DNA of 47,642 bases from an uncultured Candidatus Peribacteria bacterium (GTDB lineage: Bacteria; Patescibacteriota; Gracilibacteria; UBA4473). Positions 3,551 through 42,010 of this stretch are shown here, piece after piece (within the stretch, counting starts at the first letter, position 1; every line of letters begins with the position of its first letter). The notes under the pieces are model-generated. The model worked only from the letters and a program-made list of their open reading frames with translations. It was not told the DNA's origin and made no database searches. Made by a program: the position numbers and the translations under genes. The stretch is from positions 1 through 47,642 of the forward strand of contig CAYVJW010000001.1 of the NCBI GenBank assembly GCA_964451885.1, given 5' to 3'.

Positions 3551-3573
3551 GGGAAGAAAATTTTAATCATTAT

Positions 3574-4410
3574 TTAAAATCGAAAGCTTTCAAACACTTC
3601 AAACATAATTTTCGCTGCAGACGTTGTTTCCTGCTCATTGCCCACTGCTTCTATTCGGATTACGGATCCGTCTTTTGGGTCGAGGGTGTTGAAAATGAAA
3701 TAAACGTTATCAGATCCGAATGCGTTTCCTTTGAAGCTTTCAATGAATGTTGGGTATTTCAAAAAAGTATGGGCTCTTGATTGACTGCTTCTGGGGACTT
3801 TTATGTGGTGGGTTGTTGAACCTAGGTTTTGGGTGTTTTTAAAATGTTTATTTAGGCTGATAGCGCATAAATTAAAGTTTTTCGGTGTACATGTATATTT
3901 TTCAGGTGTTCTCACAATTCTAAAGGAAAGAGTGGATTTGTTATTTTTATAAACTCCATATTGATTTCTATTAAATTCTCTTGGGGTTTTGATGATATAT
4001 TCTTGCGGCTCGAGCAGTCTGGATCGGTCGTTTGTAAAAAGAATAGGTTTTTTTAAGCTTCTTGCTGTGTTTCCTCTTACGTGAAAGTTTCGGCGGACAG
4101 GAAAATTTCGCAGGACAGGTTTGTGGGTTTGATGTTTGTCCGGCATAGTGTTCTTGTCCTGAGAAACTCTTGTGTAGAAGGCAGCGAAGATGGAAGGCTT
4201 AAATTTTTGTACTGATCTGGACATCCAGTAAGTTTTTTTTTCTGAATAGTTATTAAACTTTTTTCGGTAACTGAACGGGCCGATTCTATTTGAAAATCGT
4301 CGGTGTTCTTTGAGGTTATTATAACCGGTGTTTCGTATGCCTTCAGAGGACGAGATAATCGTAGTGGCTAAGAATAATAGGCAAATGCTGAGTGAAATGA
4401 TTTTTTTCAT
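3574..4410 (-). CDS. Hypothetical secreted protein, tandem paralogue family member
   Basis: I moved the start to the internal ATG at 4410 (MKKIISLSICLLFLATTIISSSEG signal peptide). This removes the overlap with the upstream gene. C-terminus SVIRIEAVGNEQETTSAAKIMFEVFESFRF is clearly homologous to 4421-5200. Conserved Cys pair in YTCTPKNFNLCAISL. Confidence 0.65.
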   Translation of the reverse strand: MKKIISLSICLLFLATTIISSSEGIRNTGYNNLKEHRRFSNRIGPFSYRKKFNNYSEKKTYWMSRSVQKFKPSIFAAFYTRVSQDKNTMPDKHQTHKPVLRNFPVRRNFHVRGNTARSLKKPILFTNDRSRLLEPQEYIIKTPREFNRNQYGVYKNNKSTLSFRIVRTPEKYTCTPKNFNLCAISLNKHFKNTQNLGSTTHHIKVPRSSQSRAHTFLKYPTFIESFKGNAFGSDNVYFIFNTLDPKDGSVIRIEAVGNEQETTSAAKIMFEVFESFRF

Positions 4411-4420
4411 GGAGAGAATA

Positions 4421-5200
4421 TTATTTTTTAAACCTAAAGCTTTCAAATACCTTAAACATGGTTTTTGCTGCATATGCGGCTTCTTTTTTGTTTGCGATTG
4501 CTTCTATTCGGATTACAGATCTGTCATTCGGGTTAATGGTGCTGAGGATAAGATAAATGTTTTCGGTGCCGAACATAGTTGCTCGGAAGCTTTCGATGAA
4601 AGTTGGGTATTTTATGAAAGAGCGGGTTTGAGAAGCTACCTGGCGTGAACTTTTTGTGTAGTGTGATATGTGTGAGATGTTTTGTTTTCTTTTGAAATCT
4701 TTTCCTAAATTTATGGCACATAGATTAAAACTTTCCTGAACGCATTTGTATTTTTCCGGGGTTTTTAAAACTCGGAAAGTAAGGGATGATTTTTTATGGC
4801 GATAAATTCCGTCTGCATGTCGGTTGTACCCGTAAGGAGTTTGAATTATATATTTATAGGGGGAGAAAGTACGAAAGCGCGGATTTGGTAGCAGTTCGTT
4901 CTTTTGTTTTTTAATTAACGGACGTTTAACATAAAACTTTTGGTATTTTGAAAAATAAGGTTTGTGTCTGCGGGATGATTGGTTTGTCCAATAATTTTCT
5001 GGTTCGCTGTATTTCCTGCGTTTCGTTTTTCGGTGATAATTAAAAGGACTAGTTCTTTTTGAAAAATAACGGGCTTTTCGGTCGTGTCCTTTTTTTGAAG
5101 ATAGATAAGCGTGGTAGGTATATCGTGATGCTTCCGAAAGTGGAATTATAGTGATAACCAGGAAGGAAAGGCCGACAATTACGGCGATTGTTTTTCGCAT
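4421..5200 (-). CDS. Hypothetical secreted protein, tandem paralogue family member
   Basis: Signal peptide MRKTIAVIVGLSFLVITIIPLSEA, then a very basic K/R/Y-rich linker. Conserved motifs are YKCVQESFNLCAINL and SVIRIEAIANKKEAAYAAKTMFKVFESFRFKK. Confidence 0.65.
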   Translation of the reverse strand: MRKTIAVIVGLSFLVITIIPLSEASRYTYHAYLSSKKGHDRKARYFSKRTSPFNYHRKTKRRKYSEPENYWTNQSSRRHKPYFSKYQKFYVKRPLIKKQKNELLPNPRFRTFSPYKYIIQTPYGYNRHADGIYRHKKSSLTFRVLKTPEKYKCVQESFNLCAINLGKDFKRKQNISHISHYTKSSRQVASQTRSFIKYPTFIESFRATMFGTENIYLILSTINPNDRSVIRIEAIANKKEAAYAAKTMFKVFESFRFKK

Positions 5201-15619: not shown

Positions 15620-16372
15620 CTAAAGCACCTTCTTCCTCCTCCCTCTCCAAACAAGAAAGATAATAATAACAAGATCTATGATTTGTTCTATTCTCAGCAT
15701 TTCGTAAAGCAAATAGGTTTTATCTCCATAGAGAAACTGTAGAAAAAAGTCAGCCATAAAAAATAGTATTCCGGTGCGGATGGCTAGTTTTTCGGGAAAG
15801 CGTTCATATGTTTTTTCATGGCCTTTTGTCCAATACAAGAGCCAGAGGTGGATGAAAAAGGCGTAGAGGGATATCGGGTGGACGGGGTTGAGGATGTCTA
15901 CGCCGAAAGTCTGGTATTGGATTCCCCAAGGGAGGGTGGTTTCTTTTCCGTAAGTGGCACCGGTTAAAAAAGCTGCTATGTCGGTGATTAATATTCCTAG
16001 AAGTATGGATGGAATGGCTATGTCTATCCATTGGGAAAAAGTATAGCCGTGTTTTTTAAGGTCCCACCGGGCTGTCAGCAGGCATCCTATTAGGCTTCCG
16101 TAAAAATTTATTCCACCGTCCCAGAAGGTTAAAAAAAAGTAAATACCGTTTTTTTCTATGATGCCGGGTTCAAGCAGTATTGCAAAAATTCTTCCTACTA
16201 TTATTGCCCCCAGTACCCATTTCCAAAAATGATGAAGGAAAAAATCAACCAGGATGGTTCTTTTTTGAAGCCTTTTATAATAATTCCAAGCTCCGGCTAT
16301 GAAGGCCAAAGACAGCAGGATTCCGTATATTTTGAGACTGAAGAAGCCGAAGGAAAGTTGGTAGAAGTTCAT
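15620..16372 (-). CDS. lgt: Prolipoprotein diacylglyceryl transferase, divergent paralogue 1
   Basis: Polytopic membrane protein with Lgt-like motifs: FSLKIYGILLSLAFIAGAW, WDGGINFYGSLIG, ATYGKETTLPWGIQY. I prefer ATG 16372 (MNFYQLSF) over the GTG at 16405, which overlaps the upstream gene's stop. Confidence 0.7.
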   Translation of the reverse strand: MNFYQLSFGFFSLKIYGILLSLAFIAGAWNYYKRLQKRTILVDFFLHHFWKWVLGAIIVGRIFAILLEPGIIEKNGIYFFLTFWDGGINFYGSLIGCLLTARWDLKKHGYTFSQWIDIAIPSILLGILITDIAAFLTGATYGKETTLPWGIQYQTFGVDILNPVHPISLYAFFIHLWLLYWTKGHEKTYERFPEKLAIRTGILFFMADFFLQFLYGDKTYLLYEMLRIEQIIDLVIIIFLVWRGRRKKVL

Positions 16373-16401
16373 GGATATCAAAAGTAAGTTTTTTATTACT
16401 C

Positions 16402-17262
16402 TCACACTCTAATTACTATGTCAACTTTCTCATCATGATCTTCTCTTGGGGTCTCTTTTACAATAGAAAATTTTGGCAGTACTATTACTTTTAGTGTTTT
16501 AATGCTTGATAAAACCCGGTCGTAAAACCCCATTCCCTGTCCCAGTCTGTTATTTTCATTGTCAGCTGCTACTGCAGGAATGAAAGCGATGTTGATTTCA
16601 GAAAGATCATATTTACTTTGAGTATTTGGTTCGGGGATATTAAACTTTCCTGGTTTTAATTTTTCATACGTTGAAGCATAAAACTTCATTTCGTCATTTC
16701 TAATTAATGGGAAATAATATTTCTTTTCCGGAAATGTCTTACATAGTTTTTCTACAAAATTTATTTCGTTATTAATTGGGGCGTAGATAAGTACGTGTGA
16801 GGCAGTTTTAAACTTAGGAAGATGCAATATTTTTTCTATGGCGGTCGTGGCCCATGCTTCTTTTTGTTCCGGTGAGACAGTTTGCCATTTTTTATTTATT
16901 TCTTGGCGGAGAAAGAATTTTCGTGCTCGGAGGATGTCTTTTTCCACTTGTGAGAAAAGCGCATCGGCGTTTTGGAAAGTTTTAGTCGGGCGGTCGAACT
17001 TTAATGTGTCAATCTCCATAATTTCATTATAAATTTGTTTGTCAAAATCCAGGATGTGGACTTCGACGGAAAAGTTGCCTCCAAAAGTTTGTCTTTCTCC
17101 GTAATGAAGTACTGCATTAAAATGCTTTCCTCCCAAAAAAACTTGAACAAAATAAACACCGTGTTTAAGGTTGGCACGTCCAATAATTTTGAGGTTGGCA
17201 GTGGCGATTCCAAACTTTGTTCCTATGGAAACGCCGGGGATTACTTGGCCTGTGAATTTCAT
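16402..17262 (-). CDS. Fusion protein: riboflavin kinase domain (N-terminal) + 5-formyltetrahydrofolate cyclo-ligase domain (C-terminal)
   Basis: The N-terminal roughly 115 aa reads GQVIPGVSIGTKFGIATANL...HGVYFVQV...HYGERQTFGG..VEVHILDFDKQIYNEIMEI, the RibF C-terminal riboflavin kinase pattern. The C-terminal roughly 170 aa reads VLIYAPINNEINF...KPGKFNIPEP...IAFIPAVAADNENNRLGQGMGFYDR...PREDHDEKVDIVI, the MTHFS pattern. Confidence 0.8.
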   Translation of the reverse strand: MKFTGQVIPGVSIGTKFGIATANLKIIGRANLKHGVYFVQVFLGGKHFNAVLHYGERQTFGGNFSVEVHILDFDKQIYNEIMEIDTLKFDRPTKTFQNADALFSQVEKDILRARKFFLRQEINKKWQTVSPEQKEAWATTAIEKILHLPKFKTASHVLIYAPINNEINFVEKLCKTFPEKKYYFPLIRNDEMKFYASTYEKLKPGKFNIPEPNTQSKYDLSEINIAFIPAVAADNENNRLGQGMGFYDRVLSSIKTLKVIVLPKFSIVKETPREDHDEKVDIVIRV

Positions 17263-24340: not shown

Positions 24341-25564
24341 ATGAAAATTACTTCTGTTCACGCTCGTGAAATTCTTGATTCCCGTGGAAATCCTACGGTT
24401 GAAGTGGAAATGTCTGACGGGGTTCATACTGTCTCTGCGGCGGTTCCTTCCGGTGCTTCGACGGGAGTGCATGAGGCGTTGGAGCTTCGGGACGGGGATA
24501 AGTCCCGGTATAATGGTAAGGGGGTGTTGAAGGCGGTGGGGAATGTAAATGAAGTGATTGCTTCGGAGGTTGTGGGATTAGATCCTGCCGAACAAGAAAG
24601 CCTTGATAAAAAAATGCTGGATTTAGACGGAACAGAAAATAAATCCCGTTTGGGGGCGAATGCTATCCTGGGGGTTTCTTTGGCTGCTGCCAGACTGACG
24701 GCAAAGCAGAAAAATAGGCCTCTTTTTCAGCATATAAATGATCTTTTCGGAGGGAAGGTTAGTTTGCCGCGTCCTATGATGAATATCATCAATGGCGGAG
24801 CACATGCGGATTCGGGTTTGGCGATTCAAGAATTCATGGTCATGCCTCAGTTTGATGATTTTTCAGAAAATCTCAGAGCAGGAGCAGAAATTTTTCAGGC
24901 CTTGAAAAAAATTCTCAAAGGGCGTGGGGAGGCTATCGGTGTGGGGGACGAGGGAGGATTTGCTCCTCATTTGCCGAAAGTGGCGGATGCTTTTGACGTG
25001 ATACTGGAGGCCATTGAGGCAGCGAGTTATAATACGGAAAATGTAAAGTTGGCGATAGATGTGGCGGCTTCGGAGTTTTTTGAAGAGGAAAAATATATGG
25101 TTGATGGAAAAGTTTTTTCTTCTTCTGATTTGGTGGGTTTTTACGGGGATCTCTTGAAAAAATATCCTTTAATATCCATTGAGGATTCGCATTCGGAGGA
25201 TGATTTTGAGGGATTTATTCAGATGCAGAAAAAGTTTGGCGATAAGATTCAGCTGGTGGGGGATGATCTCTTTGTGACGAATAAAAAACGTCTACAGGCA
25301 GGGATTGATGAGGGACAGGCGAATGCGATTTTGATAAAAGTCAATCAGATAGGGTCATTGACAGAGACTTTTGCAACGATGAAGTTGGCGAAGGCCAATG
25401 GTTTTGGGACGGTTATTTCTCATCGTTCTGGGGAAACGGAAGACTGCTTCATAGCTGATCTTGCGGTGGGGACGGATGCGGGGCAGATAAAGACGGGGTC
25501 GCTGAGCCGGTCGGAGCGGATTTGTAAGTATAATCAGTTGCTGAGGATTGGGGAGAGGTTATGA
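24341..25564 (+). CDS. eno: Enolase (phosphopyruvate hydratase)
   Basis: 407 aa. Motifs are [76 protein letters not shown]. Confidence 0.97.
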
Positions 25565-25969
25565 AAAAATCTTCGTAATCCCTGCTGCTAGGATAGCAAT
25601 GAATAAACTAACCATTCCCCATTGCCAGCCAAAAGTTACTTTTACTTTATGACGAGCTTGATATATTTCATCAAGCCGATCTCGTTCTCTATTTTGATTA
25701 TTTTCGACACGTTCAATACTTCTCTCTACAATGTCCAAACGTTTGTCCATTTGATCCAAACGTTTATCCATTTGCTCAAAGCGTCGGTCAATCTGCTCAA
25801 AACGTTGGTCAATCTGCTCAAAACGTTGGTCAATCTGCTCAAAACGTTGGTCAATTTGATTAAAACGCTGGTCAATTTGATTAAAACGCTGGTCAATCTG
25901 ACTAAAGCGTTGGTCGACATCTGCTCGAAAATCTTTTAGTAATTGTAAGATGGTGTCTTCTTTTGTCAT
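25559..25969 (-). CDS. Tail-anchored coiled-coil protein built from perfect heptad repeats (QIDQRFE)n
   Basis: [79 protein letters not shown]... ending in a C-terminal TM segment [20 protein letters not shown] prefer ATG 25969 over TTG 26005. Confidence 0.65.
25745..25912. repeat. 21-bp tandem repeat array (8 units; degenerate units flank it)
   Basis: Three identical units gtcaatctgctcaaaacgttg lie at 25787-25849. Two identical units gtcaatttgattaaaacgctg lie at 25850-25891. Diverged units sit on both sides. The array is in frame and encodes the heptads of the 25559-25969 protein. Confidence 0.9.
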
Positions 25970-26085
25970 TGTGTATATTTTATTATAATTAATTAAGGAT
26001 GTCAAAAATAAAGGAAAAAATAAGACTTTCGTTTGATTTATATATATTTTTATGGTAAAATCAAGAGATTTGATAATTTTAAACC

Positions 26086-26865
26086 ATGAAAAATCACTAT
26101 CGGTTTCGTTTTGAAGGGGGGTGTCGTTTTGTTTTTTTTAGGAGGATTGGGGTAGAGGTAATGAATTCGGAAGTTGATGCAAATAAGGAATGGGCGAAAG
26201 AAATGAAAGATGCGAAAATTTGGGCGAAGGATGCACAGGATGAGTTGGCGGGAGAGATTGAGAGAAATTTGTCGAAAAATAGTGATAATGTTCGGGAGGT
26301 TCAACGTGGCGATACGATGTACACGATTGTTCGAGGGATGAAAGGATTGAAAAGCTTTTCGTGGAGAAAAGATAAAAATATGGAAGTGGAATACAGAGGG
26401 GTTTCTGAAAAACAGCTTAGAAAAAATAAGGCAGAGACCGGTACGGGAAAATTAAATGATGCCGGTCGGATTTATCCGGGGCAATATGTGTGGCTGGAAG
26501 GGGAAAAAGTGATAGTTTCTACTACTCCGCCTGAGGAGAAAATTGCTACCGATGAGAGACTTCCGGAGTATTCGAAGGCGGATTTGGAGATGTACAAAAA
26601 TGTCGAATTTCCTGTTTTGAGCTTTCACGAAGGGATGGAATTGGAGGCTTTTGTGGCCAGAGAATTTTTGGGGGCAAGGCGTGTTGCTCCTAAAGAATTG
26701 AAATATCGGGTGATAGAAAAGAAGGAAGAAAGCGGGCAAACTTCAAGGAAAAGTTTGGGACAGTTGAGAGCTTGTCGACATCTTCCGGTTCATGATGGGG
26801 AAAAAGTTACAGTGAGGCCGGATCCTGTATCAGAGGGAGTGGTGATTATTTGGGAAAAGAAATAA
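26086..26865 (+). CDS. Hypothetical protein with a LysM-like segment, no signal peptide
   Basis: VQRGDTMYTIVRGM...GRIYPGQYVWLEGEKVIV resembles an expanded LysM peptidoglycan-binding motif (GDTl..Ia ... GQ.l.ip). An alternative start is ATG 26161 (MNSEVDANKEW). Confidence 0.5.
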   Translation: MKNHYRFRFEGGCRFVFFRRIGVEVMNSEVDANKEWAKEMKDAKIWAKDAQDELAGEIERNLSKNSDNVREVQRGDTMYTIVRGMKGLKSFSWRKDKNMEVEYRGVSEKQLRKNKAETGTGKLNDAGRIYPGQYVWLEGEKVIVSTTPPEEKIATDERLPEYSKADLEMYKNVEFPVLSFHEGMELEAFVAREFLGARRVAPKELKYRVIEKKEESGQTSRKSLGQLRACRHLPVHDGEKVTVRPDPVSEGVVIIWEKK

Positions 26866-27299
26866 GAGTGAACAAATAGCAAAATTGAGAAGTTTTTATT
26901 GACTTTGTTTTTTTGATAAGTAAAAAGTCTACAACAAGAATATTTTTCCACTCGGGCTGTTGTAGGATATTATTTACAAATACTTGTAGAGATTTTCTTA
27001 TAACATTGCATTGTTAAGTAGTATTCGACATAAAAAAATTCCGTATTTTTTTAGTAATCCGCTTATGGGCTCATCTTTACTTAGTCTTGTTATAAACGAG
27101 GATAAAATTGTACAGAGTCGTCTGCTCTTAATGTGGGCTGTAGGCTTTATTGACATTTTGCTTGACTTTTCTTGGCAAATAATGTAGGTTGAATTTAAGT
27201 AGACAAAAAGTAAAAAAACAAAAAATAAAAAACAAAAAATAAAAAGGAGTGAAGGAGATATTTTCCGGTTACTTTACTTTGTTCTTTTACATATCGTTT

Positions 27300-27402
27300 C
27301 TATTACCCTTCTCGTGTGGGTTTTGACATATATGAGAGCTTTCTTTTTATGAGAATGTTCGAATCATCTGTCGAAGCCCCGTCACACCCGGAAGGGTAAT
27401 AG
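27300..27402 (+). promoter_or_regulatory. 12-bp perfect inverted repeat framing the leader of the GC-rich gene
   Basis: ctattacccttc (27300-27311) and gaagggtaatag (27391-27402) are exact reverse complements. Extra gtgtg/cacac pairing is possible just inside. The structure ends about 37 nt before the ATG at 27440, where composition switches from AT-rich to GC-rich. Confidence 0.45.
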
Positions 27403-27439
27403 TGGAAAGTTTTTTTAACACCAACCAAGGGGAAACAGC

Positions 27440-28963
27440 ATGAGCGAGAGCGTGCAAGACGGCTCTGGTTCCCAGCCGCAAAGCGGGGATCAAGGGGCTT
27501 CCCCCCCTGACGGGGGTGAAGCAATGGATCAACAGGACCAGGACAACAACGGAGGAGGTGAACCCATCGATGTGAAAGTAAACGAACAAGAGGACACCGA
27601 AGGGGATGCTTTCCCCGAGGAAACTGAGGTCGAACCGCAGATGTATGATGACCAACCGCAGATGAATGATCACCCCATTACAAAAGAGGATGCTATGGAC
27701 AACACCAAACCCAACAAACTGGATCAACTCAAACAGGAGGTAGTTGACGAGCAGCGCCTCCGCAGTGATCTTGCCGCCGAGGTGGCGAGTTCCAAACAGG
27801 CCGCTGAGTTGCTTAGTGCGGTGGCGAACAAGTTGAATACGCCGCCTCCGCATGCGCAGGTGGCTGGGGCCATCGACAACGCTGCTACTGCCTTTACCGG
27901 AGCGGCCACGGCCATACAGGAGGCGGCGGTCAAGGTTGCTGAGAGCAATCAGGCGGCCAATTCTGGTGACGGAAGTAACGGCCAGCAGCCGGAGGGTGAC
28001 GGGAAGATTCCTTTGAAGACCATCGTGATTTCGGTGCGGTTGGCCAAGGACACCAAGGGGCTCCACATCAGGTCGATCATTCCTGGCAAGGGGCTGCGTA
28101 GTGGTATCATCAAGAAGCGTAGCACTATGGCGGTGGATGTGAGTGGGAACATCAAGTTCATGACCAACGATGGGACAATTTATCAAGGGCGTATCCGCGA
28201 TGGTCAGGTAGTGACTGGACGGTTCTTGGAAGCCATGGTGACGGAAGTTGTCAATGGTGTTACCTTGACTACCGATCCCATCGAGCATCATGTGAACAAT
28301 CCCTGGGAGGAGGTTGTCACGGCGTTCCCGACTAACACCATCACTCCGGACGATCCGCATGAGGTGGACATCGAGGATGACACCGATGATGTTCCGGGTC
28401 AGGAAAAGACGCCATCTCGCGGTTTCTGGAATAAATCCAACAAATCGGATTCGACCGGCGCCTCTGCTCCGACATCATCGACTCAGGAGCCGAAATCCGG
28501 TGTCTCGCCGTTATGGATTGTGGTGGCTGTGATCGGGACTGCGCTGGCTGGAGGAGGCATGTATACGGCCAATCAACTCGGGATGTTTGGCGCCACAGTG
28601 GCGTCGCAGCAGGCGCAGATTGCCAATTTTAACGGGTTCCTGAGCGGCCAAAACCAATCGCTTCTTGGCCAGATTGGGGAGCTTGAGGCTCAGCTTGACG
28701 CGGCCCAGCACAAGGTGAATAACGCGGAAGCGCAGGTTCAGGTGTCCCGCAATCAGGTGACCCAGTTGAATAAGAAGTTGACCAAGACCAGCACGGCCAA
28801 TTTCGATCGCATAAACCGCAAGTTGCAGAACGCCCAGAAGCGCTATGCGGATGCGAGGGCGGCCGAAAAGCGGGCCATTGCGGACCTGACTGCTCTTGAG
28901 AAAACCCTGAAAGAGGCGGAGAAGCATGCGAGCAACGCCAAGGGTCGATTGGGAGTCATGTGA
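27440..28963 (+). CDS. Compositionally foreign (GC-rich) bitopic membrane protein: acidic disordered N-terminus, central beta-rich domain, one TM, C-terminal coiled coil
   Basis: 507 aa. A GGGGA ribosome-binding site lies 6 nt upstream. The TM segment is PLWIVVAVIGTALAGGGMY (about 28502-28565). The C-terminal heptad-rich region reads LGQIGELEAQLDAAQHKVNNAEAQVQVSRNQVTQLNKKL... Codon choice (GCC, GTG, CTG, CAG) is unlike neighbouring genes. I recognise no family. Confidence 0.7.
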   Translation: MSESVQDGSGSQPQSGDQGASPPDGGEAMDQQDQDNNGGGEPIDVKVNEQEDTEGDAFPEETEVEPQMYDDQPQMNDHPITKEDAMDNTKPNKLDQLKQEVVDEQRLRSDLAAEVASSKQAAELLSAVANKLNTPPPHAQVAGAIDNAATAFTGAATAIQEAAVKVAESNQAANSGDGSNGQQPEGDGKIPLKTIVISVRLAKDTKGLHIRSIIPGKGLRSGIIKKRSTMAVDVSGNIKFMTNDGTIYQGRIRDGQVVTGRFLEAMVTEVVNGVTLTTDPIEHHVNNPWEEVVTAFPTNTITPDDPHEVDIEDDTDDVPGQEKTPSRGFWNKSNKSDSTGASAPTSSTQEPKSGVSPLWIVVAVIGTALAGGGMYTANQLGMFGATVASQQAQIANFNGFLSGQNQSLLGQIGELEAQLDAAQHKVNNAEAQVQVSRNQVTQLNKKLTKTSTANFDRINRKLQNAQKRYADARAAEKRAIADLTALEKTLKEAEKHASNAKGRLGVM

Positions 28964-29166
28964 AGTGAATGATGTTCTCCTCAAACTTTCCGTCAAGGGA
29001 ATTCGTCCTTGACAATAAGTATGTGTTCCCCCGGCTTGCCGGGGGGGCGCATCCTGCCCCCTTAAATCCTTCCGGGTGAAAAAGGAGGAAGGGAAATGTT
29101 GATCATCATTGATCAGAAAACATCTTCCCTTTCTCTTCAACAAATAAAAATTCAACAAACAGAACT

Positions 29167-29226
29167 TAGTTTTTAGTTGTTAGTTTTTAGTAATTTTATT
29201 TTTCTAAAGACTAGTAACTAAAAACT
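29167..29226 (+). promoter_or_regulatory. Direct + inverted repeat cluster upstream of the 1192-aa gene (operator-like)
   Basis: ttagtttttagt occurs twice in tandem (29167-29178 and 29181-29192). An inverted partner ctagtaactaaaaact lies at 29211-29226, making an 11 bp + 3 bp stem with 29168-29183. The cluster ends about 33 nt upstream of ATG 29259. Confidence 0.4.
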
Positions 29227-29258
29227 TATTTTCTTCCAAGCTCTAACAACTACTCCCA

Positions 29259-32200
29259 ATGTCTCTTGAACAAACCACCTCTCCGACCTTAGACCAGGCT
29301 GTAACTTTACACGAAGTTGCGGCGGCTTTTGCGTATGGGGAAGGGGCGGAGGCGAGACAAGTACTCAATCCCTCACGGCCTGATGATTTGGTGTTGCTTA
29401 AGAGGCGGAGTGTGCAGAATCTATTGGAAAATGCTAAATTACCTGTTTCGGGGCTTTTATATGCAGAGGTAGATACCGCGCTTCCTCCTGACATTGAAAG
29501 ATCTCTTCGAAAACTGAAAAATGCGCCCAATGAGGCGGAACGAGTGGCGGTAAAAATGATAGAGGATATTCAGAAAAGCCTGGTGAATATTTCTTCAAAA
29601 TTAAAGGGACTTGAACGGGCTTCTTACGATACAAGACGTCGGGAATTTAGCAGGTTAAATAGTTTATTTTTGGATTATATCCCCAGAGCGTTTGTGCATT
29701 CTAAATTTCCTTTGGGGTACCTTCCTGCTCAAAGTCCGCGTAGATCAGAACTTAATAACTCTCTTCAAGATTTGGTGTCATTGGGACAGAATGTAGAAAG
29801 AACATATGGTTTAGTTGTCTCCTTCAATCAAGAGGCAACACTAGCCAATCTTCGTGGTAGTATTGAGCGAGTCAGTGCTGTAGTGTCGATAGATCCTCCA
29901 TCCTTATTAGACACTCCGGAAGTGGGTTGGCAGGAAAAAGGTTGGCAAATAGCTGATAGAATTATTCCGCAAAAGTTAATCCAATGGGGGAGGCAGTGGA
30001 CAAGTGGGAACGAAGAGGGCGGGGACAGAGAAAATGTTGATAGGATAGATTATGAAGCACTTGGGTTTGATTCCTCTCAGTACGAATATCTGAGAAGGCT
30101 GGAGAGATGGGAAGAAAAAACAGGCGCTTACTTGAAAAAAACAGAAGATTATTTATTGGCTCGTCATCCTTCCTGGCAAAAAGATTTTCCAGATATATGG
30201 GATGCGTTTAACCGGCTTTATACAGTTCAAAGGCAGATAGAAGTGGAAATCAGAACTTTGCGTCGTGCTTCTGAAAGCAATTCTTCCGGGGCGGTTTTGA
30301 AAGGCCTGGAAGAAAATTCAATTGCTCCATCATCCGATAAAGTAGAACAGGTTACTGATTATTTACTAAACCAGCTTCCTGCTTCTATTCGTTCAAAACC
30401 GGTTTGTTCAGCGGCTTTGGGTTTTTTAAATGAACATTTTGGAGTGGACGTCGGGTTTAGCATGAGGGCAACTTCCGCGTGGGCGCTTGCGGGGCATATG
30501 ACTAAGCTTCATTCTACCAATAGAGCTAAATTTAAAAAGGTTGATGAGGGGGAGTATCAGCTTTCTTCTGTGTCGTTGAGGAAGCAGGATGTCCGGCCGA
30601 TTTATATGGCATTGGGGGGAATAAATGAAGGGGATGAAAGAAATGGAGCGAAAAAATATATTACTTTTGTTTATGAGGCTTCTGAGTTTAAGGATAATGC
30701 GGCTCGGGCTTTTGCTAAGAGTCCGGATTCTGTCCGGCCAAATACGCATGTGATGGAGGTGTTTGGGCGGAAAAAGTTTTTGGTTCGTGTTGATTCGCCA
30801 GTAAGATTGAGAGATTTTTTGAAAAAACAGTTTGTTCCCCGAGATTACATAGGAGATACACGTAAACCTGCATCGCACGTGGATTCAGATGCTTTTTTAA
30901 TTGAACTTGTTAAGGTTCTTAATTTAAAAATAAATGGCATGTCTGTGTCTATGGATTTGAATAGGCAATTTGAGGGGGAAGTTGAGTGGGAAGATTTTAT
31001 GGGAATGGATTTTATTCATGTGAGAGATCCTTTGAATAAAAAGGCGGAAATTCCAAAAATAAGGTTATTGCCGCTTTCAACAATGCTCCTGGATAAGAGA
31101 TTCGTTCCCGTGGACGTATTGGAAACACAGTCAACGGCTATAGAAAGCATTCCAACCGATCAACTCATTCAAAAATTATCAGAAGCTCAGTGGGGATACT
31201 TAAGAGGAAGATCCGTCAAGGTTAGCTATCTGCAAGTGGCTTTGGAGAGGATTGGATTGTCGCCAGGTTCGTTTGACGGGTATTATGCTACGAATGGGGT
31301 ATTGAATAAACTAAATAAAACGAGAGGTGCGGAAAGAATCACGTATCTTGATAATCTTGGGATGGGAAAAGGAGGAGATACGGCCAGGGCCGTGATGGCT
31401 TACCAAAGGATTAGGGGGTTTTCGGAGGATGGACTGGCTGGGGAACATACGGTGGCGGGTGTAGTTGAAGATTTGAGAATAGGCAACAGAATTTCCATTC
31501 CTCGGAGAGTAGAACTGGCAGAGCCGCTATTGACCTATCAGGAAGAACCATTGAAGATAGTGGATTTTGCGCAGGAATTAAATAGAAAGCAAGCTTTGAG
31601 GTTTATAGAAAGAAAATTACATAAACTTGGTGTATCGAGGATAAGAAATGCGGCTCAAGTGGAAGGATTGAGAGATAATATATATGAAGCAGTAGAGGGA
31701 TCTGGTATAAAAATTACTCCGGGGAATATGTCTTATATTGTTTCCGTGCAATACCTGGAATCTTCTTTTGGTTTGGGACAGCGGTTTGGAGAAGGAATTT
31801 ATAATAATTTTATAAACGGTCTTTCCTGGTACGAGAAATATACCGTTGAATCGGCTTTGGATGTGGTAAAAGGAATAGAAATAGCCGGTTTTAGCGGTGA
31901 AGAGAGAGTTGATTCTTTTTTGGCCTGTAAGACAAAAAAAGATTTGTATCGGTGGGCACAGGATACAGTGAGTATGCTGCAAAATCCTGAACTGCAAAGC
32001 GAGATTGAGAATAAGTTTTTCTTTAATAGTGCCTTGAAGATAGTGTTGGATTTTTTTGAAATAGAATATGAAGGCGATGATTATTATGAAGCCGCGGTTG
32101 CAAGACTGGCAGAAGAACCTTCTTCCTTGGGAATTTTTCAGGTAAATGTGGATTCTTTTATAAGGATTTTGGAAAGTCGGAAGGAAGAATGGAAAAACGA

Positions 32201-32837
32201 TACTCGATGGAGAGCTCTTTTGCGGGGAGAAAGAATAGATAGGGATTTGCTTGCTAGGTCTTTATTGGAAGATTCGGATCGTTTAGATATTTTGTCAAAG
32301 GTGGATATAGAGGCGCTTGTCATTCGGTATTATTTGAAGCCTATAATGGAAAGATATGATTTTAATGGAGATGGATCCGTGGGATTGAACGAAGTTGGGC
32401 TTATTACTGCGGATTTTCATGCGGGCAGTTTTTCTCCCCGAAACGCAGCTGTGCAACAAGCTTTAAGTCGAGTGCTTGGAACAAGTCTGATTTTGGATGG
32501 AGATTTGTCTTTTTATGATAAAGAAGGAAACCCGGTTTTTTGGGAGGGGGCGGAAACGGTACAAAGTCTTATGAAATTTTCCGAAAGTTTGACATCAGAG
32601 CAAAGAAAAGGACTATCCTCTCGAGAATTTGTAGAAAGTTTTGTTGTTTTGTCTAATTCTCCCGATCTGGAGAGACACCAGCTTTATAGTGTTTTGATGC
32701 AGGCGGGGGAAGATCGATGGATCATTCCTGTGGGAGCCAGGATAAAAAGTGGGTTTGCAACAGTGAGTGGGATTGAATCTGTCAGTGCGAAGGCTTATGT
32801 CCAAAGAGCTCAGGAGGTGTATTTGGCAGGACATTGA
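29259..32837 (+). CDS. Large multidomain protein: shared novel N-terminal domain + peptidoglycan-binding (PG_binding_1-like) repeat + EF-hand Ca loop, no signal peptide
   Basis: 1192 aa. The N-terminal roughly 335 aa are paralogous to the N-terminus of 32862-34400. VSYLQVALERIGLSPGSFDG...GDTARAVMAYQRIRGFSEDGLAGEHTVAGV (about 31221-31475) fits the PG_binding_1 pattern with an insertion. DFNGDGSVGLNE (32358-32393) is a canonical EF-hand loop. EEPSSLGIFQVN is only weakly reminiscent of lytic-transglycosylase ES..GLMQ motifs. Confidence 0.75.
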   Translation: MSLEQTTSPTLDQAVTLHEVAAAFAYGEGAEARQVLNPSRPDDLVLLKRRSVQNLLENAKLPVSGLLYAEVDTALPPDIERSLRKLKNAPNEAERVAVKMIEDIQKSLVNISSKLKGLERASYDTRRREFSRLNSLFLDYIPRAFVHSKFPLGYLPAQSPRRSELNNSLQDLVSLGQNVERTYGLVVSFNQEATLANLRGSIERVSAVVSIDPPSLLDTPEVGWQEKGWQIADRIIPQKLIQWGRQWTSGNEEGGDRENVDRIDYEALGFDSSQYEYLRRLERWEEKTGAYLKKTEDYLLARHPSWQKDFPDIWDAFNRLYTVQRQIEVEIRTLRRASESNSSGAVLKGLEENSIAPSSDKVEQVTDYLLNQLPASIRSKPVCSAALGFLNEHFGVDVGFSMRATSAWALAGHMTKLHSTNRAKFKKVDEGEYQLSSVSLRKQDVRPIYMALGGINEGDERNGAKKYITFVYEASEFKDNAARAFAKSPDSVRPNTHVMEVFGRKKFLVRVDSPVRLRDFLKKQFVPRDYIGDTRKPASHVDSDAFLIELVKVLNLKINGMSVSMDLNRQFEGEVEWEDFMGMDFIHVRDPLNKKAEIPKIRLLPLSTMLLDKRFVPVDVLETQSTAIESIPTDQLIQKLSEAQWGYLRGRSVKVSYLQVALERIGLSPGSFDGYYATNGVLNKLNKTRGAERITYLDNLGMGKGGDTARAVMAYQRIRGFSEDGLAGEHTVAGVVEDLRIGNRISIPRRVELAEPLLTYQEEPLKIVDFAQELNRKQALRFIERKLHKLGVSRIRNAAQVEGLRDNIYEAVEGSGIKITPGNMSYIVSVQYLESSFGLGQRFGEGIYNNFINGLSWYEKYTVESALDVVKGIEIAGFSGEERVDSFLACKTKKDLYRWAQDTVSMLQNPELQSEIENKFFFNSALKIVLDFFEIEYEGDDYYEAAVARLAEEPSSLGIFQVNVDSFIRILESRKEEWKNDTRWRALLRGERIDRDLLARSLLEDSDRLDILSKVDIEALVIRYYLKPIMERYDFNGDGSVGLNEVGLITADFHAGSFSPRNAAVQQALSRVLGTSLILDGDLSFYDKEGNPVFWEGAETVQSLMKFSESLTSEQRKGLSSREFVESFVVLSNSPDLERHQLYSVLMQAGEDRWIIPVGARIKSGFATVSGIESVSAKAYVQRAQEVYLAGH

Positions 32838-32861
32838 ATTCAATTTTTAATTTCTAATTAA

Positions 32862-34400
32862 ATGACTATTGAGCAGAGTGGTGTGTCGACGTTAGATCAG
32901 GCTGTTACGATGCAGGAGGTAGCAGATGCTTTTGCTTATAGTGATAGAGTGGAAAAGAGGCAAGTGTTAGATCCTTCAAATCCTGATGATGTGGTGTTAC
33001 TGCAGAGATGGAATGTGAGTGAACTATTGGATTCATTTAGGATGCCTGTTTCAGGGTCCGTGTATGCTTCAGCACAAGGGGAGATGATGTCTGACGCAAA
33101 TGTTGCACTTTTCTCAAATATGGAAAGGGATATTCAAAAACTGAAAAGATTGATATTTCGTCAAGCGAAAGAAAAATCTGAAAAAGCGATTGAGGACATT
33201 CGCGAGAGTATTAATAATATCACTTCAAAACTGAGAGAATTCGAGAGTCGGCCTCATGAAGAAAGAATTCAGGAGTTGGAAAGGCTTCATAGTTTGATGC
33301 GAGAATATATTCCCAGAGCGGAAATGCATTTGGAGGCTTTTTTTGAGGATTTGTCTCCAAAAAGTGATTCCAGAATTATTCTTTCCAAATCGATTCGTGA
33401 ATTAAAAGAACTTGAGCAAAAATTAGGAAAGCATCTTGAATTAGCGCTTCAATTTGATCCAGCCATCACGCTTAGAGATATTCAGAAGAGCATTGATAAG
33501 TCAAAAGACGAACTGACTTTGCGTTCAGGAGAATCCATCGATTATTTGCGTCGAATAAAAGCCTGGGTAGAAAAAGCCAAGGCTTATGAGAAAAAAGCAA
33601 AACTTTATTTAAGAGCTCGTGCTCCCAATTGGAGAAAAGATTTTCCGGAAATTAAAAAAGCGCTTAGGGCGCTTTTTGCGTTTCGTAGAGGGATAGAACG
33701 TAAAATTTCTCGTCCTGGTATTGAATCTGTTCTTTTAAATGGAAGTGTAATTCCGGGAAAATATTTAAGCTCAGCCAGAAAGACAGAACGATCAATTGAC
33801 GGGGAGGAGGGGCATCGCCTCGAAAAAATTTTTCAGCCGGAGTTGGATTTTTTGGCTGGCAAGATGGGGAAGGGGGATTATGTTTTGTTGGCAGATGTTT
33901 CTCAAAAAGAGCAACTGGACGGAGGGCCTTTTCAGCAGCTTTATTGGGTGCGACGGACGGCGGACGGTTTTATTTTTGAAAAGCGGTTTATCATGTCAGG
34001 GAGTAAGGTAGAACCCGGAAAAAATGTAACAAGTTCATTTAGTACTCCTTATGGACTTCATAAAATTGCTTCTATAGTAAAAGGTGATTTTGCTTCCGTT
34101 ATTAAGGGAAGAAGAGTCCAAAGAAGGAAGGTAGAAAATATTTCAACCGGAGATGCGAGAATTTTAACTACGGCAGCTCTGTATTTGAAAGGCCTGGAAA
34201 GGGGGATAAATGATTTGTCTAACCCTCGGGGGATTGCTATCCATGGAACTCCTTTTGAAAGGAGATTAGGGAGGCCGGCTTCTCACGGTTGTATTTGGCT
34301 TTCGAATGCGGATATTTTAAATCTTTTGGAGATGATAAATCGGAATCCAGAAAAGGGGTGGGCGTATATAACAGATCAGAAGAATCATCGCAATTTGTAA
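32862..34400 (+). CDS. Shared novel N-terminal domain fused to a YkuD-type L,D-transpeptidase catalytic domain, no signal peptide
   Basis: 512 aa. The N-terminus MTIEQSGVSTLDQAVTMQEVADAFAY...YLRRIKAWVEKAKAYEKKAKLYLRARAPNWRKDFPEI parallels the 1192-aa protein. The C-terminus carries TPYGLHKI...GIAIHGTPFERRLGRPASHGCIWLSNADILNL, the YkuD H-G/SHGC motif. The catalytic Cys codon is at 34290-34292. Confidence 0.8.
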   Translation: MTIEQSGVSTLDQAVTMQEVADAFAYSDRVEKRQVLDPSNPDDVVLLQRWNVSELLDSFRMPVSGSVYASAQGEMMSDANVALFSNMERDIQKLKRLIFRQAKEKSEKAIEDIRESINNITSKLREFESRPHEERIQELERLHSLMREYIPRAEMHLEAFFEDLSPKSDSRIILSKSIRELKELEQKLGKHLELALQFDPAITLRDIQKSIDKSKDELTLRSGESIDYLRRIKAWVEKAKAYEKKAKLYLRARAPNWRKDFPEIKKALRALFAFRRGIERKISRPGIESVLLNGSVIPGKYLSSARKTERSIDGEEGHRLEKIFQPELDFLAGKMGKGDYVLLADVSQKEQLDGGPFQQLYWVRRTADGFIFEKRFIMSGSKVEPGKNVTSSFSTPYGLHKIASIVKGDFASVIKGRRVQRRKVENISTGDARILTTAALYLKGLERGINDLSNPRGIAIHGTPFERRLGRPASHGCIWLSNADILNLLEMINRNPEKGWAYITDQKNHRNL

Positions 34401-34627
34401 ACAATAACCGACAATGTTTTTATTGGTGAGAATGAAATATGCTTGACTTTCCATAGAGACAGTGCTACAAAGTAATTAGTTTTTTTCTTCTCAATAAAAC
34501 TCGGCTAAAAATTCGAAGTTTTTTGAGAAAAAAATCATTATTTGCTCTTTTTCATATCGATAATTTACCATCATTTTTTTCGTATTATCATTGGTCTAAG
34601 AGGCCAGAACTCAAGAGGAGGATAGGT

Positions 34628-35131
34628 ATGCTCAAAAAACCGTGGTTTTGGATAATCATCCTTTCGTTGATGCTAGGGGCGGAAGCTTTCTGGATCTTCA
34701 ATGGAAGGGGAGAAGCGGCGGCTGGTCATGGATCTGACCCGCCTTTTGTTAACCAACAGGTTGACGCGGACTGGTTAGATGACCTTGATAAATTTCGGCA
34801 GTCAGTTGCTGATGAGGCATTGGCGCGGCGCGACGGGGATAAAAATCTTAGTCGCCAAGTCAAGAAGCTTCGCACTCAGATGGAGGTTGTTGCTCGGAAA
34901 CATGAATCGTTGACTCGCCGGGTCGATGAGAGTGATCGGAATTGGGCTCGTCTGGCAGAAGGGCGTCATGAAGCCGAAACAATGGCAAAACAGTATTGGG
35001 AACATGATGCAAACAATTCTCTTTGCGGCTCTTTCTACTCCATGGGCCATTGTCCGGAAGTTCTTCCATGGAAGGAGTACCTCGAAAGGGCGCTTCGGGA
35101 AGCAGGTGTATTCTTCTTTCCCGAGAGATGA
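34628..35131 (+). CDS. Hypothetical N-terminally anchored membrane protein, elevated GC
   Basis: The start moves to ATG 34628, preceded by a strong AGGAGG ribosome-binding site (gaggaggataggtATG). The TM segment is WFWIIILSLMLGAEAFWIF. The remainder is charged and helical (LRTQMEVVARKHESLTRRVDESDRNWARLAEGRHEAE). The track ORF begins at 34523. Confidence 0.6.
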   Translation: MLKKPWFWIIILSLMLGAEAFWIFNGRGEAAAGHGSDPPFVNQQVDADWLDDLDKFRQSVADEALARRDGDKNLSRQVKKLRTQMEVVARKHESLTRRVDESDRNWARLAEGRHEAETMAKQYWEHDANNSLCGSFYSMGHCPEVLPWKEYLERALREAGVFFFPER

Positions 35132-39668: not shown

Positions 39669-40424
39669 ATGACCTGGAACCTCGATCCCATCGCTTTCTC
39701 CCTCTTTGGTCTCGATGTTCGATGGTACGGTTTGTCGTATGTTCTTGGATTTTTTCTTGTTTTGATTATCGGGCATAAAATCATTTTGCGAACGGGATTG
39801 AAAGTGTCTAAATCAGATTTTGAGAATCTTGTTTTCGGTTTGTTTTTTATTGGAATTGTAGGGGGGAGGTTGGGAGAGTTTTTGTTTTATGCGCCGCAAA
39901 CTTTTTTGGAAGATCCTTTGGAGGTTTTCAAGATTTGGCACGGTGGGATGTCTATTCACGGGGGGATTTTGGCGGCCATTTTGTTTGGGGTTTGGTGGGC
40001 GAAAAAGCATAAGATTTCGTTTTATTGTCTGGCCGACAGTTTAGTTATTCCTCTGGCGATTGCTTTGGGGGTTGGCCGGATTGCGAATTTTATTAATGGA
40101 GAACTCGTTGGAATTCCGACAGATCAGAGCTGGGGGGTGATTTTTCCGCATGTGGACGATCTGTTTCGGCATCCGTCGCAGCTTTATGAAGCGGGGAAGA
40201 ATTTTATTTTGGCGGGGTTGTTAATGTGGCTGTTGATTAAAGATTTTTGGAAAAAGCCGGGATTTTTATTTTCGGTTTTTCTTATAGGGTACGGGGTTTT
40301 GAGATTTATTATTGAGTTTTGTCGGGAGCCGGACGGGATGATTTGGGTTTTGTCGACGGGACAGGTTTTGTGTTTGGGGATGGTTGTTTTCGGCTTGACA
40401 ATTCGAAAATTTTCATTTACATGA
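39669..40424 (+). CDS. lgt: Prolipoprotein diacylglyceryl transferase, canonical paralogue 2
   Basis: 251 aa. Motifs are DVRWYGLSYVLGF, IWHGGMSIHGGILAAILFG, GRIANFINGELVGIPTDQSWGVIFP, RHPSQLYEA. Confidence 0.92.
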   Translation: MTWNLDPIAFSLFGLDVRWYGLSYVLGFFLVLIIGHKIILRTGLKVSKSDFENLVFGLFFIGIVGGRLGEFLFYAPQTFLEDPLEVFKIWHGGMSIHGGILAAILFGVWWAKKHKISFYCLADSLVIPLAIALGVGRIANFINGELVGIPTDQSWGVIFPHVDDLFRHPSQLYEAGKNFILAGLLMWLLIKDFWKKPGFLFSVFLIGYGVLRFIIEFCREPDGMIWVLSTGQVLCLGMVVFGLTIRKFSFT

Positions 40425-40558: not shown

Positions 40559-41200
40559 ATGTTTATCATGAACAAGAAACAGTCTGTTGGTGCAGTTGGG
40601 GTTGTGGTTGGCATAGTGGGATTGGTGACTGCCTATCTTGCTTATGCTTTTCCGGTGGAGAGTGGGCAGTCTCTTCCTTCTAAGGTTCTCTACACAATGG
40701 TGGTGATTCCGGGACTCTGTTTGTTCTATGGCCTCTTGCAGTTTCGGAGAAGCAAGGCGGTTCTCCTCTGGGGGCTTGCGTTGGCAATAATGTGTTTTTC
40801 GGGAGGGGCGTTTGTTTTGGGAGTTGATCCGTTGATTGTCTCGAAAACTTTTACCGAGTTCTGTGTGTTTATCATTTGGACCTGGGCTCTTTTTCCTCTG
40901 TGGAAAGGGGCGGAAGTTTGGCCATTCGCAAAGGATGAAAACCGGAAAGTTTTCATTTGGACAACGACTCCGGTTCTCCTGATCGTTGGGACAGTCCTGT
41001 TTTTCTTGGGGACGGAGGGAATTGATTCCGTGGTGGAGTATGTTTCTTCATCTTCCCACTGGGTACAGGAGGCGATATTGTGCGGCGTTGTGTTGCTGAT
41101 TTCCTTGTGGATGCTCATCACCAAGTCCATTCTGTTTCTTCGCGTATTGAAGAGCAAAAATGCCGGCTTGGATAAACCGGTTACGGATGAGGTCGAGTAG
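40559..41200 (+). CDS. Hypothetical polytopic membrane protein (about 6 TM), somewhat elevated GC
   Basis: 213 aa of successive hydrophobic segments (VGVVVGIVGLVTAYLAYAF, MVVIPGLCLFYGLL, LLWGLALAIMCFSGGAFVLGV, FCVFIIWTWALFPLW, VLLIVGTVLFFLG, AILCGVVLLISLWMLI). I recognise no family. Confidence 0.6.
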   Translation: MFIMNKKQSVGAVGVVVGIVGLVTAYLAYAFPVESGQSLPSKVLYTMVVIPGLCLFYGLLQFRRSKAVLLWGLALAIMCFSGGAFVLGVDPLIVSKTFTEFCVFIIWTWALFPLWKGAEVWPFAKDENRKVFIWTTTPVLLIVGTVLFFLGTEGIDSVVEYVSSSSHWVQEAILCGVVLLISLWMLITKSILFLRVLKSKNAGLDKPVTDEVE

Positions 41201-41280
41201 ATGATGAGGCTCCCCGAGGAGCTGGATGCTCCGGTTGGGTAGCTCAGAAGACAGTCAAATCAGGTGCAATTTTCAGATTT

Positions 41281-41319
41281 CCCCTTCCCGGCGCGGTTGT
41301 GCTGGGGGGGAGTTTTTTT
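41281..41319 (+). terminator. Putative intrinsic terminator
   Basis: ccccttccc...ggggggg forms a G/C-rich stem with G-U pairs. It is followed by agttttttt (41311-41319), about 80 nt after the stop of 40559-41200. Confidence 0.4.
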
Positions 41320-41493
41320 AATGTAGGGAGAGAATCTATGTGTTCGTCTTTTATGTAAATACATCCTCACAATAAATCACGCTTTAGTTCAACCTAAAAA
41401 ATTTGACACAAATGTATTGTGCGAATACAATACTTTGATAATTAAATTTAATTGATCTTTTACAGGCCGGAATAAGTGGAGAGGATAGAGTAA

Positions 41494-41586
41494 ATGAAAT
41501 TACTTCCGCTTGGAAAAATAATATATCATTTACTCTCATCTCTCTGCTTTGCGATGTCGCTTATGAAGCCTAAACCACTTAAATAA
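41494..41586 (+). CDS. Candidate 30-aa small hydrophobic/basic peptide ORF with a sequestered ribosome-binding site
   Basis: Below the ORF-track size cut-off. ATG 41494 is preceded by GGAGAGGA. Translation is MKLLPLGKIIYHLLSSLCFAMSLMKPKPLK, ending at TAA 41584-41586. The RBS and ATG (41479-41497) can pair with 41526-41544 inside the ORF (11 bp, 2 mismatches, then 6 bp). Confidence 0.3.
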   Translation: MKLLPLGKIIYHLLSSLCFAMSLMKPKPLK

Positions 41587-41907
41587 GCGCACCGTAAAAC
41601 ATTGAGAAAAACGGTTGATTTTGTAAAGACAATTCTTGAATTAACTTTTCCAAAAACTGCCTTTTCTCTACCAACCGTTTTACGGTCTTCCAAAAAATCT
41701 GTTCGTATCCTACATCAAATTAGCAAGTAAGTCAAATTACTTCTAAATCCACAGTAAGATACATCAAGAACACCGTAGGTAATACGGATTATTACCAAAG
41801 CAAGGCGAGAGTACTTATCGAGGTGGGTTTGCCTCAGAAACCGGTTCAGGATTGTTCTACTTCATAAATGAAGTTCTCGAATAACTCCGGCCGGTTTCGC
41901 TATGGGG

Positions 41908-41989
41908 ATAGAACTTAGAAGAATACAGATTCTTTTTCTATGCTCTAAGCTCTAAGTTCTACCATCTTTTCCGCGTAGCGGATATGTTC
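41908..41989 (-). repeat. Intergenic hairpin repeat, copy 3
   Basis: atagaacttagaagaatacagattctttttctatgctctaagctctaagttctaccatcttttccgcgtagcggatatgttc lies about 20 nt downstream of the stop of the minus-strand PBP gene. Relative to its upstream gene it has the same orientation as copy 1. Confidence 0.85.
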
Positions 41990-42010
41990 TTGTTGAAATT
42001 CCTATAGATA

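Follow-up and report, generated by a model that had tools for sequence, protein, structure and literature searches.

A GC-rich gene without detectable relatives in a chromosome of the candidate phyla radiation

The DNA analysed here (the window) is the 47,642-nt contig CAYVJW010000001.1 of an uncultured Candidatus Peribacteria bacterium, a trimmed copy of the JGI metagenome contig Ga0118727_1002460 (sample 3300009128, 47,726 bp), with the NCBI/ENA copy representing the same assembly. The window was found to be ordinary chromosome, including (i) pheS, rpoD, pheT, murE, der, tgt, two lgt genes, rpsO, pnp, and rluD; and (ii) ychF, dcd, dhfr, eno, and a gene for a class A penicillin-binding protein (PBP). 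Enolase was 74-81% identical to that of metagenome-assembled genomes (MAGs) labelled Candidatus Peribacteria, Gracilibacteria, or Altimarinota, and this identity places the organism among the bacteria of the candidate phyla radiation (CPR). Between hyp259 and big1192 (1192 aa, with PG_binding_1 and DUF1615 matches, starting at 29259) lies an open reading frame (ORF) for a protein of 507 aa, hereafter the GC-rich gene, which is foreign to this chromosome in composition and for which no homologue was found among about 15 billion proteins in total. The stretch from about 27340 to 29100 probably constitutes an islet made up of one foreign gene, which was recently acquired by horizontal transfer from a source of approximately 55-58% GC. 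Coordinates of this gene and of the features around it are listed in Table 1.

Table 1. Positions of the GC-rich gene, its flanking structures and the surrounding gene block in the window
Feature	Position	Strand	Basis or remark
GC-rich gene, 507-aa ORFan	27440-28963	+	sole ORF across the entire GC-rich block; JGI gene caller agrees
GC-rich compositional block (~1.76 kb)	27340-29100	.	150-nt profile; z-scores of GC, tetranucleotides and Karlin delta*
Antisense ORF of 337 aa, a non-genic shadow	27347-28360	-	mirrored codon-position GC; R/L/S/H-rich product
Antisense ORF of 215 aa, a non-genic shadow	28511-29158	-	mirrored codon-position GC; R/L/S/H-rich product
Long imperfect 5'-leader hairpin	27300-27402	+	perfect inverted repeat of 12 nt closes it, CTATTACCCTTC / GAAGGGTAATAG
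Three consecutive stem-loops directly 3' of the stop codon	28985-29137	+	fold
Stem-loop 1	28992-29013	+	fold
Stem-loop 2	29021-29052	+	14-bp GC-rich stem, CCCCCGGC/GCCGGGGG
Stem-loop 3	29083-29137	+	~23 bp
AT-rich hairpin (23 bp) just upstream of big1192, in a spacer of native composition	29161-29234	+	inverted repeat, fold
Lineage-specific six-gene block, 9.6 kb	25559-35131	.	missing from the collinear relative L005

Coding status of the GC-rich gene

The GC-rich gene starts with ATG, ends with TGA, and carries a Shine-Dalgarno-like AAGGGGA at -14 to -8, whereas nearly all native genes of the window are without a Shine-Dalgarno motif and are AT-rich upstream. The probability that 507 codons would remain open by chance in DNA of such composition is 6 × 10−10. 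A structured RNA gene was rejected as an explanation of the elevated GC based on these 507 open codons and on the lack of a credible Rfam match; scanning with Rfam at the gathering threshold and at E ≤ 1 returned nothing except a spurious microRNA match far below threshold. Two long antisense ORFs, which the original prediction had interpreted as shadows cast by high GC, were indeed detected and found to be the longest non-gene ORFs of the window (the next is of 192 aa), with a composition typical of shadows. Coding on the minus strand was rejected, as (i) the antisense GC pattern mirrors that of the sense strand; and (ii) R, L, S, H, and C make up 39-42% of the residues in the antisense translations. 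The antisense ORFs are furthermore interrupted at places where the sense frame remains open. Also rejected was genetic code 25 (that of the BD1-5 Gracilibacteria), as TGA ends 12 of the 39 genes and the ORFs are intact under table 11. A separate ORF of 26 codons (29096-29176), with AAGGAGG upstream, sits inside the third of the downstream hairpins.

Composition of the gene and of its source

The composition of the GC-rich gene was compared with that of the window at several levels. Its GC is 0.562 (GC1 0.61, GC2 0.42, and GC3 0.654 at the first, second, and third codon positions, respectively), compared with 0.410 for the whole window and 0.405 for gene-sized windows of 1,524 nt (z = 6.2). Native genes (n = 32) were found to have a mean GC3 of 0.395 (sd 0.061, maximum 0.568), placing the GC-rich gene at z = 4.2 and making it the only ORF of the window with a GC3 above 0.57. 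This elevation extends along the entire gene (GC3 of 0.57-0.73 per segment), and 150-nt windows with a GC of at least 0.54 were found at a frequency of 78% within the ORF versus 1.3% outside the block. The shift to G/C-ending codons affects nearly every amino acid, as illustrated by the relative use (GC-rich gene versus native genes) of GAG (0.68 versus 0.28), AAG (0.65 versus 0.24), TTC (0.70 versus 0.19), and CGC (0.47 versus 0.08). When tetranucleotide frequencies were normalized for GC, the correlation of the gene with the rest of the contig was r = 0.34 (z = -9.3), with 169 other gene-sized windows serving as reference (r = 0.81 ± 0.05, minimum 0.655). Similarly, the Karlin dinucleotide delta* was 0.161 for the gene versus 0.064 ± 0.019 (z = 5.2). 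The alien signature persists with base composition removed, and the gene is foreign in composition. Thus, the original prediction of a GC-rich outlier in AT-rich surroundings, with a switch to G/C-ending codons, was confirmed, with the deviation significant by GC, GC3, and tetranucleotide use alike.

A native gene of deviant composition would be an old resident that evolves too fast for homologues to be recognised and whose GC is maintained by selection (on expression or mRNA structure) or by its amino acid content. The product is rich in Ala, Gly, Asp, Gln, and Thr, which raises the expected GC to 0.476 with native codons; CPR bacteria encode many fast-evolving, lineage-specific proteins, with the neighbouring big1192 likewise without homologues; and the GC3 of native genes can reach 0.57. 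However, when the amino acids of the GC-rich gene were recoded with native synonymous usage, the expected GC3 was only 0.408, and amino acid content was found to account for under half of the GC rise (about 7 of 15 points), with the remainder due to codon choice. The highly expressed eno and pnp genes are without such a bias, the tetranucleotide signature is alien even after removal of base composition (z of about -9), the non-coding leader and trailer are also GC-enriched, and the gene is missing from all related loci. A native origin is, therefore, considered very unlikely.

The GC of the source was estimated from each codon position by cross-genome regression of codon-position GC on genomic GC, an approach reportedly from Lawrence and Ochman (1997). 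Values of 55.4% (GC1), 57.0% (GC2), and 57.7% (GC3) were obtained, while the host values fit 41%. The agreement among the three codon positions suggests little or no amelioration, and since all three match what a genome of approximately 55-58% GC would have, without drift towards the 41% of the host, the arrival of the gene would appear to have been recent, judging from composition. The proposal of a recent acquisition from a high-GC donor was thus upheld in terms of foreign composition and was modified in that the source appears moderately GC-rich (about 56%), with composition as the only measure of how recent the event may be.

Homology searches and the identity of the donor

The 507-aa protein was searched against profile and sequence collections. 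No match was detected in Pfam, and NCBIfam, PHROGs, and PADLOC returned coiled-coil noise alone, confined to the helical tail and 3- to 20-fold under the curated cut-offs. The best of the weak NCBIfam matches all fell within residues ~315-503, including (i) SEC10/PgrA (TIGR04320), with 24 bits against a cut-off of 70 (E = 2 × 10−5, residues 376-503); (ii) the CT392 family (NF047362), with 20.7 bits against a cut-off of 160; and (iii) HemX, with 21.4 bits against a cut-off of 414. The protein was assigned to neither SEC10/PgrA nor CT392. The same applies to the phage tape-measure family phrog_1535, for which the match is limited to residues 388-503 (E = 2.7 × 10−4, 20 bits) and no phage genes are near; SMC and JetC were additional weak matches to the helical tail. 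No relative was found by a word-indexed search of 5.8 billion clustered proteins. An exhaustive HMMER scan of 1.84 billion representatives yielded a lone match (P0001; E = 1 × 10−5, residues 385-457), which is a repetitive coiled coil and was rejected as compositional. Translated searches of JGI metagenomes, IMG/VR, INPHARED phages, and PLSDB plasmids detected nothing, no match was found among PDB sequences, and the window contains no paralogue. These results agree with the original prediction that the protein would match no family, and they left no donor taxon to be named by homology. The 90% cluster of the protein is represented by a 53-aa sequence (P0004) that was rejected as a relative, having no protein or DNA similarity to the GC-rich gene; the TARA contigs that carry it (L162-L171) are eukaryote-like, with C2 and Hint domains and sparse genes, and the clustering is an artefact.

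Attempts to assign a donor by oligonucleotide signature, using 160 fetched loci of many phyla, were rejected, as the best correlation was r = 0.64 compared with 0.74-0.87 for self-fragments. This result bears on the suggestion that the gene was derived from the GC-richer bacterial host of a presumed episymbiont. CPR bacteria are generally inferred to be host-dependent (PMC6851277, PMC12455944), a source of about 56% GC would be typical for many Proteobacteria, and the tetranucleotide correlation to generic mid- or high-GC genomes (r of about 0.64) is slightly above that to its own contig (0.53). Yet the same value is far under that of self-fragments, transfers into Patescibacteria come mostly from other Patescibacteria (PMC12455944), and a typical, well-sampled host phylum should yield relatives among the roughly 15 billion proteins searched. 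No evidence was found for a host donor, which the original prediction had raised as a speculation; this origin is somewhat disfavoured by the searches and is considered highly improbable. The lack of a homologue makes a well-sampled donor, for example a typical host from the Proteobacteria or Actinobacteria, less likely and fits better with a poorly sampled source, most plausibly a different CPR bacterium, or else a phage or mobile element from the same community. Some CPR lineages are of similar GC (e.g., L028 at 56%).

Edges of the islet and signatures of mobile elements

The GC-rich block is sharply delimited by AT-rich spacers at 26866-27330 (GC 0.26-0.35) and 29100-29258 (GC 0.27-0.33), and it forms a complete unit composed of a structured leader, a Shine-Dalgarno-like motif, the ORF, and a stack of hairpins past the stop codon. 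The leader hairpin (about 100 nt) was found to fold with a z-score of -4.3, with none of 200 shuffled sequences folding as well. The trailer of 295 nt (28964-29258) has four stem-loops in series and a minimum free energy (MFE) of -96.5 kcal/mol compared with -59.5 ± 4.75 kcal/mol for shuffled sequences (z = -7.8), which is the strongest fold among the intergenic regions of the contig. Structured flanks were rejected as a unique feature of the gene, as four other intergenic sites reach z-scores of -4 to -6. The hairpin sequences have no other copies in the window and match no Rfam family, the spurious microRNA match noted above being to the AT-rich hairpin upstream of big1192. A terminator scan identified none with a T-run, and the three downstream stem-loops are terminator-like without one. 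A 22-nt repeat of 77% identity at 27241 and 29079 was also rejected, as it is not above chance.

This organization was further considered in relation to a phage moron or the remnant of a mobile element, in which case a CPR phage or plasmid would have delivered the gene and the cargo alone would remain. ORFan status, a self-contained transcription unit, and terminator hairpins of its own are typical of phage morons, and the GC-rich gene combines these features. In addition, the neighbouring cc148 matches phage families (phrog_6701), although the resemblance is largely one of a coiled coil plus a transmembrane (TM) segment. Counter to this explanation, the 47.6 kb are without an integrase, phage structural gene, att site, or tRNA site, no match was found in IMG/VR, INPHARED, or PLSDB, and the PHROG matches of the GC-rich gene are confined to its coiled-coil segment (E of about 3 × 10−4). 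A moron or element remnant is, thus, possible though doubtful. With no integrase, tRNA/att site, or direct repeats, the gene was also not classified as part of a genomic island, prophage, or integrative element. The lack of an integrase, tRNA, att site, and target-site duplication suggests instead illegitimate or homology-facilitated recombination of DNA that was taken up.

Genomic context and integrity of the assembly

The GC-rich gene resides in a block of six genes that includes cc148, hyp259, the GC-rich gene itself, big1192, a gene for a 512-aa YkuD L,D-transpeptidase, and hyp202. The collinear relative (L005, enolase 77% identical) has the gene order dcd-dhfr-eno-(70 nt)-hyp349-LTD-lemA-lgt2, with the six genes of the window being extra at that point. 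As this relative joins eno to hyp349 directly, the entire 9.6-kb block is lineage-specific and constitutes an indel in a gene order that is conserved on either side. The other five genes of the block are of native composition, which suggests a separate and later arrival of the GC-rich gene, or another source for it. Two other loci (L003 and L004, enolase 79% identical) were rejected as positional counterparts, as unrelated housekeeping genes follow eno and they are not collinear downstream. No counterpart of the GC-rich gene was detected in about 160 related loci, and enolase scans of the collections revealed no relative closer than 81% identity. The big1192 protein had no homologue except itself in the 5.8 billion clusters, and a scan for sister genomes with big1192 was empty.

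Two contigs of the same population, L173 (ENA ERZ23499038, SAMN10231901) and L174 (JGI 3300013119), were located via hyp259 and are 100% identical to the window over 1.2 kb; the population of the window organism is, thus, present in at least two other samples. These contigs bear on whether the GC-rich block is an assembly chimera, in which a 1.76-kb piece from another organism of the metagenome was stitched into a CPR contig. The window derives from a single metagenome assembly, the gene was found in no other assembly, and the two independent contigs end at 27034 and 27121, in both cases within the spacer and 220-300 nt before the junction. However, both are low-coverage contigs of 1.2 kb whose other ends also break, in a tandem repeat, such that the breaks are unremarkable. 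A chimera would require two false joins, while both flanks belong to one lineage (dcd-dhfr-eno ... hyp349-LTD-lemA-lgt2 is collinear in L005); the piece corresponds to exactly one entire gene with its leader and terminator-like hairpins, with no gene disrupted; and the flanks have no repeat in common that might mislead an assembler. A chimeric origin is, accordingly, regarded as unlikely.

Within the same block, cc148 (25559-26005, minus strand) encodes a tail-anchored coiled-coil protein of 148 aa with a C-terminal TM segment. At least seven tandem 21-nt repeats (25713-25922) were found within this gene, encoding a heptad array of QIDQRF(E/N), and it is within these repeats that L173 and L174 break at their other ends. 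The cc148 protein matches phrog_6701 (unknown function, E = 4 × 10−23) and XhlA-like 'hemolysin' profiles.

Predicted product of the GC-rich gene

The architecture proposed in the original prediction (an acidic disordered head, a beta-rich middle, one TM segment, and a C-terminal coiled coil) was borne out by analysis of the 507-aa protein, with the C-terminal part predicted as a long helix. Residues 1-95 form an acidic, low-complexity, disordered head with a net charge of -22, followed by two Ala-rich helices (residues 92-132 and 138-174) and a Gly/Ser linker. Residues 196-300 are beta-rich and residues 301-355 constitute an acidic, Ser/Thr linker. The sole hydrophobic segment, at residues ~354-378 (Kyte-Doolittle 1.75), is the predicted TM segment, and the C-terminal part is a long helix (residues 377-505, about 130 residues) that was modelled by AlphaFold2 with a predicted local distance difference test (pLDDT) score of 72-90. 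Neither a signal peptide nor an LPXTG motif is present in the protein. The few basic residues, located on the N-terminal side of the TM segment, together with the strongly acidic 355 N-terminal residues, point to an N-in/C-out topology. The product may, thus, be a bitopic membrane protein in which the N-terminal 355 residues (head, helical hairpin, and small beta domain) would be cytoplasmic and the C-terminal helix of 130 residues, which in extended form would measure about 19 nm, would point outward as a stalk or coiled coil. A role as an envelope or surface scaffold, or as an adhesion or exclusion-type protein, would fit the surrounding cell-wall genes.

This outward helix can be combined with a host-derived origin, such that the gene would be a recent capture from the bacterial host, or from a phage shared by host and episymbiont, and the helix would serve as a stalk for attachment or for exclusion of competitors. 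This scenario is considered very improbable. If true, it would provide a direct, datable trace of gene flow from host to episymbiont, and the protein would be the first of a new family.

Origin of the islet and comparison with known systems

Overall, the composition, edges, and distribution of the GC-rich gene are best accounted for by horizontal acquisition, in which the islet would have inserted into an intergenic spacer inside a lineage-specific block of cell-envelope genes on a CPR chromosome. Several points weigh against this interpretation. Regarding mobility, no tRNA was found anywhere in the 47.6-kb window, and Pfam scans of all window ORFs revealed no integrase, transposase, or phage structural gene. 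The flanks share A-rich low-complexity matches only, with no flanking repeat or target-site duplication, and the gene was not classified as an integron cassette, as the attC-like core pair is absent from both flanks on both strands. In terms of descent, there is no phylogenetic proof of transfer given that no donor or homologue was found, and the contig is known from one metagenome assembly. The collinear relative is without the whole block, so the absence from the syntenic site gives no date for the GC-rich gene itself, and the nearest comparable genomes are only 77-81% identical in enolase. The argument for a lack of amelioration is also imprecise, as GC1 and GC2 of a single gene are noisy and depend on amino acid content. 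With respect to the product, single-sequence AlphaFold2 models were too poor for use (pLDDT of 50 for the full protein and 39 for the beta-rich middle), the C-terminal helix gives a modest heptad signal, and both topology and function are predictions of low confidence.

The islet was next compared with systems described previously. Genomic islands and single-gene transfers are common in Patescibacteria, mostly from other Patescibacteria, and together account for up to 13% of genome length (PMC12455944). Similar to genes and islets detected by composition as products of horizontal gene transfer (HGT), the GC-rich gene has atypical GC, GC3, codon usage, and oligonucleotide signature, has sharp intergenic edges, is absent (together with its five neighbours) from a collinear relative, and resides in a recipient phylum with documented transfers. 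Unlike the published HGT islands (PMC12455944), it is one gene, has no mobility gene, tRNA, or repeat, and offers no donor to which phylogenetic criteria could be applied. A comparison with the hypervariable gene of a closed Gracilibacteria (BD1-5) genome, a surface gene with a PTD repeat that is common to co-occurring Colwellia (PMC6851277), was also made. Both genes are unannotatable and probably surface-related, and host exchange has been discussed for the BD1-5 gene. In the BD1-5 case, however, the repeat is hypervariable within the population and the genome uses code 25 at 29% GC, whereas the GC-rich gene is non-repetitive, foreign in composition, and set in a genome of code 11 and 41% GC. 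The weak profile matches provide a further parallel, as proteins of the SEC10/PgrA, CT392, and HemX type likewise have a long helical or coiled-coil segment by a membrane anchor; the N-terminal 350 residues of our protein are, however, unmatched, so the resemblance is compositional.

Bacterial ORFans are said to be largely phage-derived (a view attributed to Daubin and Ochman, 2004). Like them, the GC-rich gene is without a homologue, self-contained, and located in a variable region. In contrast to classical ORFans, which are short and have a higher AT content than the host genome, this gene is long, at 507 aa, and exceeds its host by 15 GC points. It is a clear example of an ORFan whose composition is alien to its CPR genome, but the phenomenon is well known and the case an ordinary one. 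If the junctions are real, the islet would represent a clean, unameliorated acquisition of a single gene in a streamlined CPR genome, and it would indicate that CPR genomes still gain and retain foreign DNA without recognisable mobile-element machinery. Furthermore, a predicted membrane protein of no known family in a lineage-specific envelope gene block is a candidate player in the surface biology that episymbionts rely on.

Other features of the window

Additional features were noted outside of the six-gene block. An 810-nt gene-free spacer (41201-42010) separates a gene for a membrane protein (40559-41200) from the convergent PBP1A gene and is predicted to be strongly structured (z = -5.95). 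Its ORFs do not exceed 55 aa and Rfam yielded no credible match; the spacer may hold the remains of a decayed gene or a non-coding RNA that has not been described before. Two Lgt paralogues are encoded, at 39669-40424 (Pfam E = 8 × 10−71) and at 15620-16405 (E = 5 × 10−26), with the latter far more divergent. On the minus strand, three consecutive ORFs (2687-5200; 287, 299, and 259 aa) went unmatched in Pfam and show an unusual codon-position pattern, with GC1 lower than GC2. Whichever way the genes point, GC skew is positive nearly throughout the window, and its cumulative curve climbs monotonically; this pattern suggests that the whole contig lies on one replichore, with the plus strand as the leading strand.

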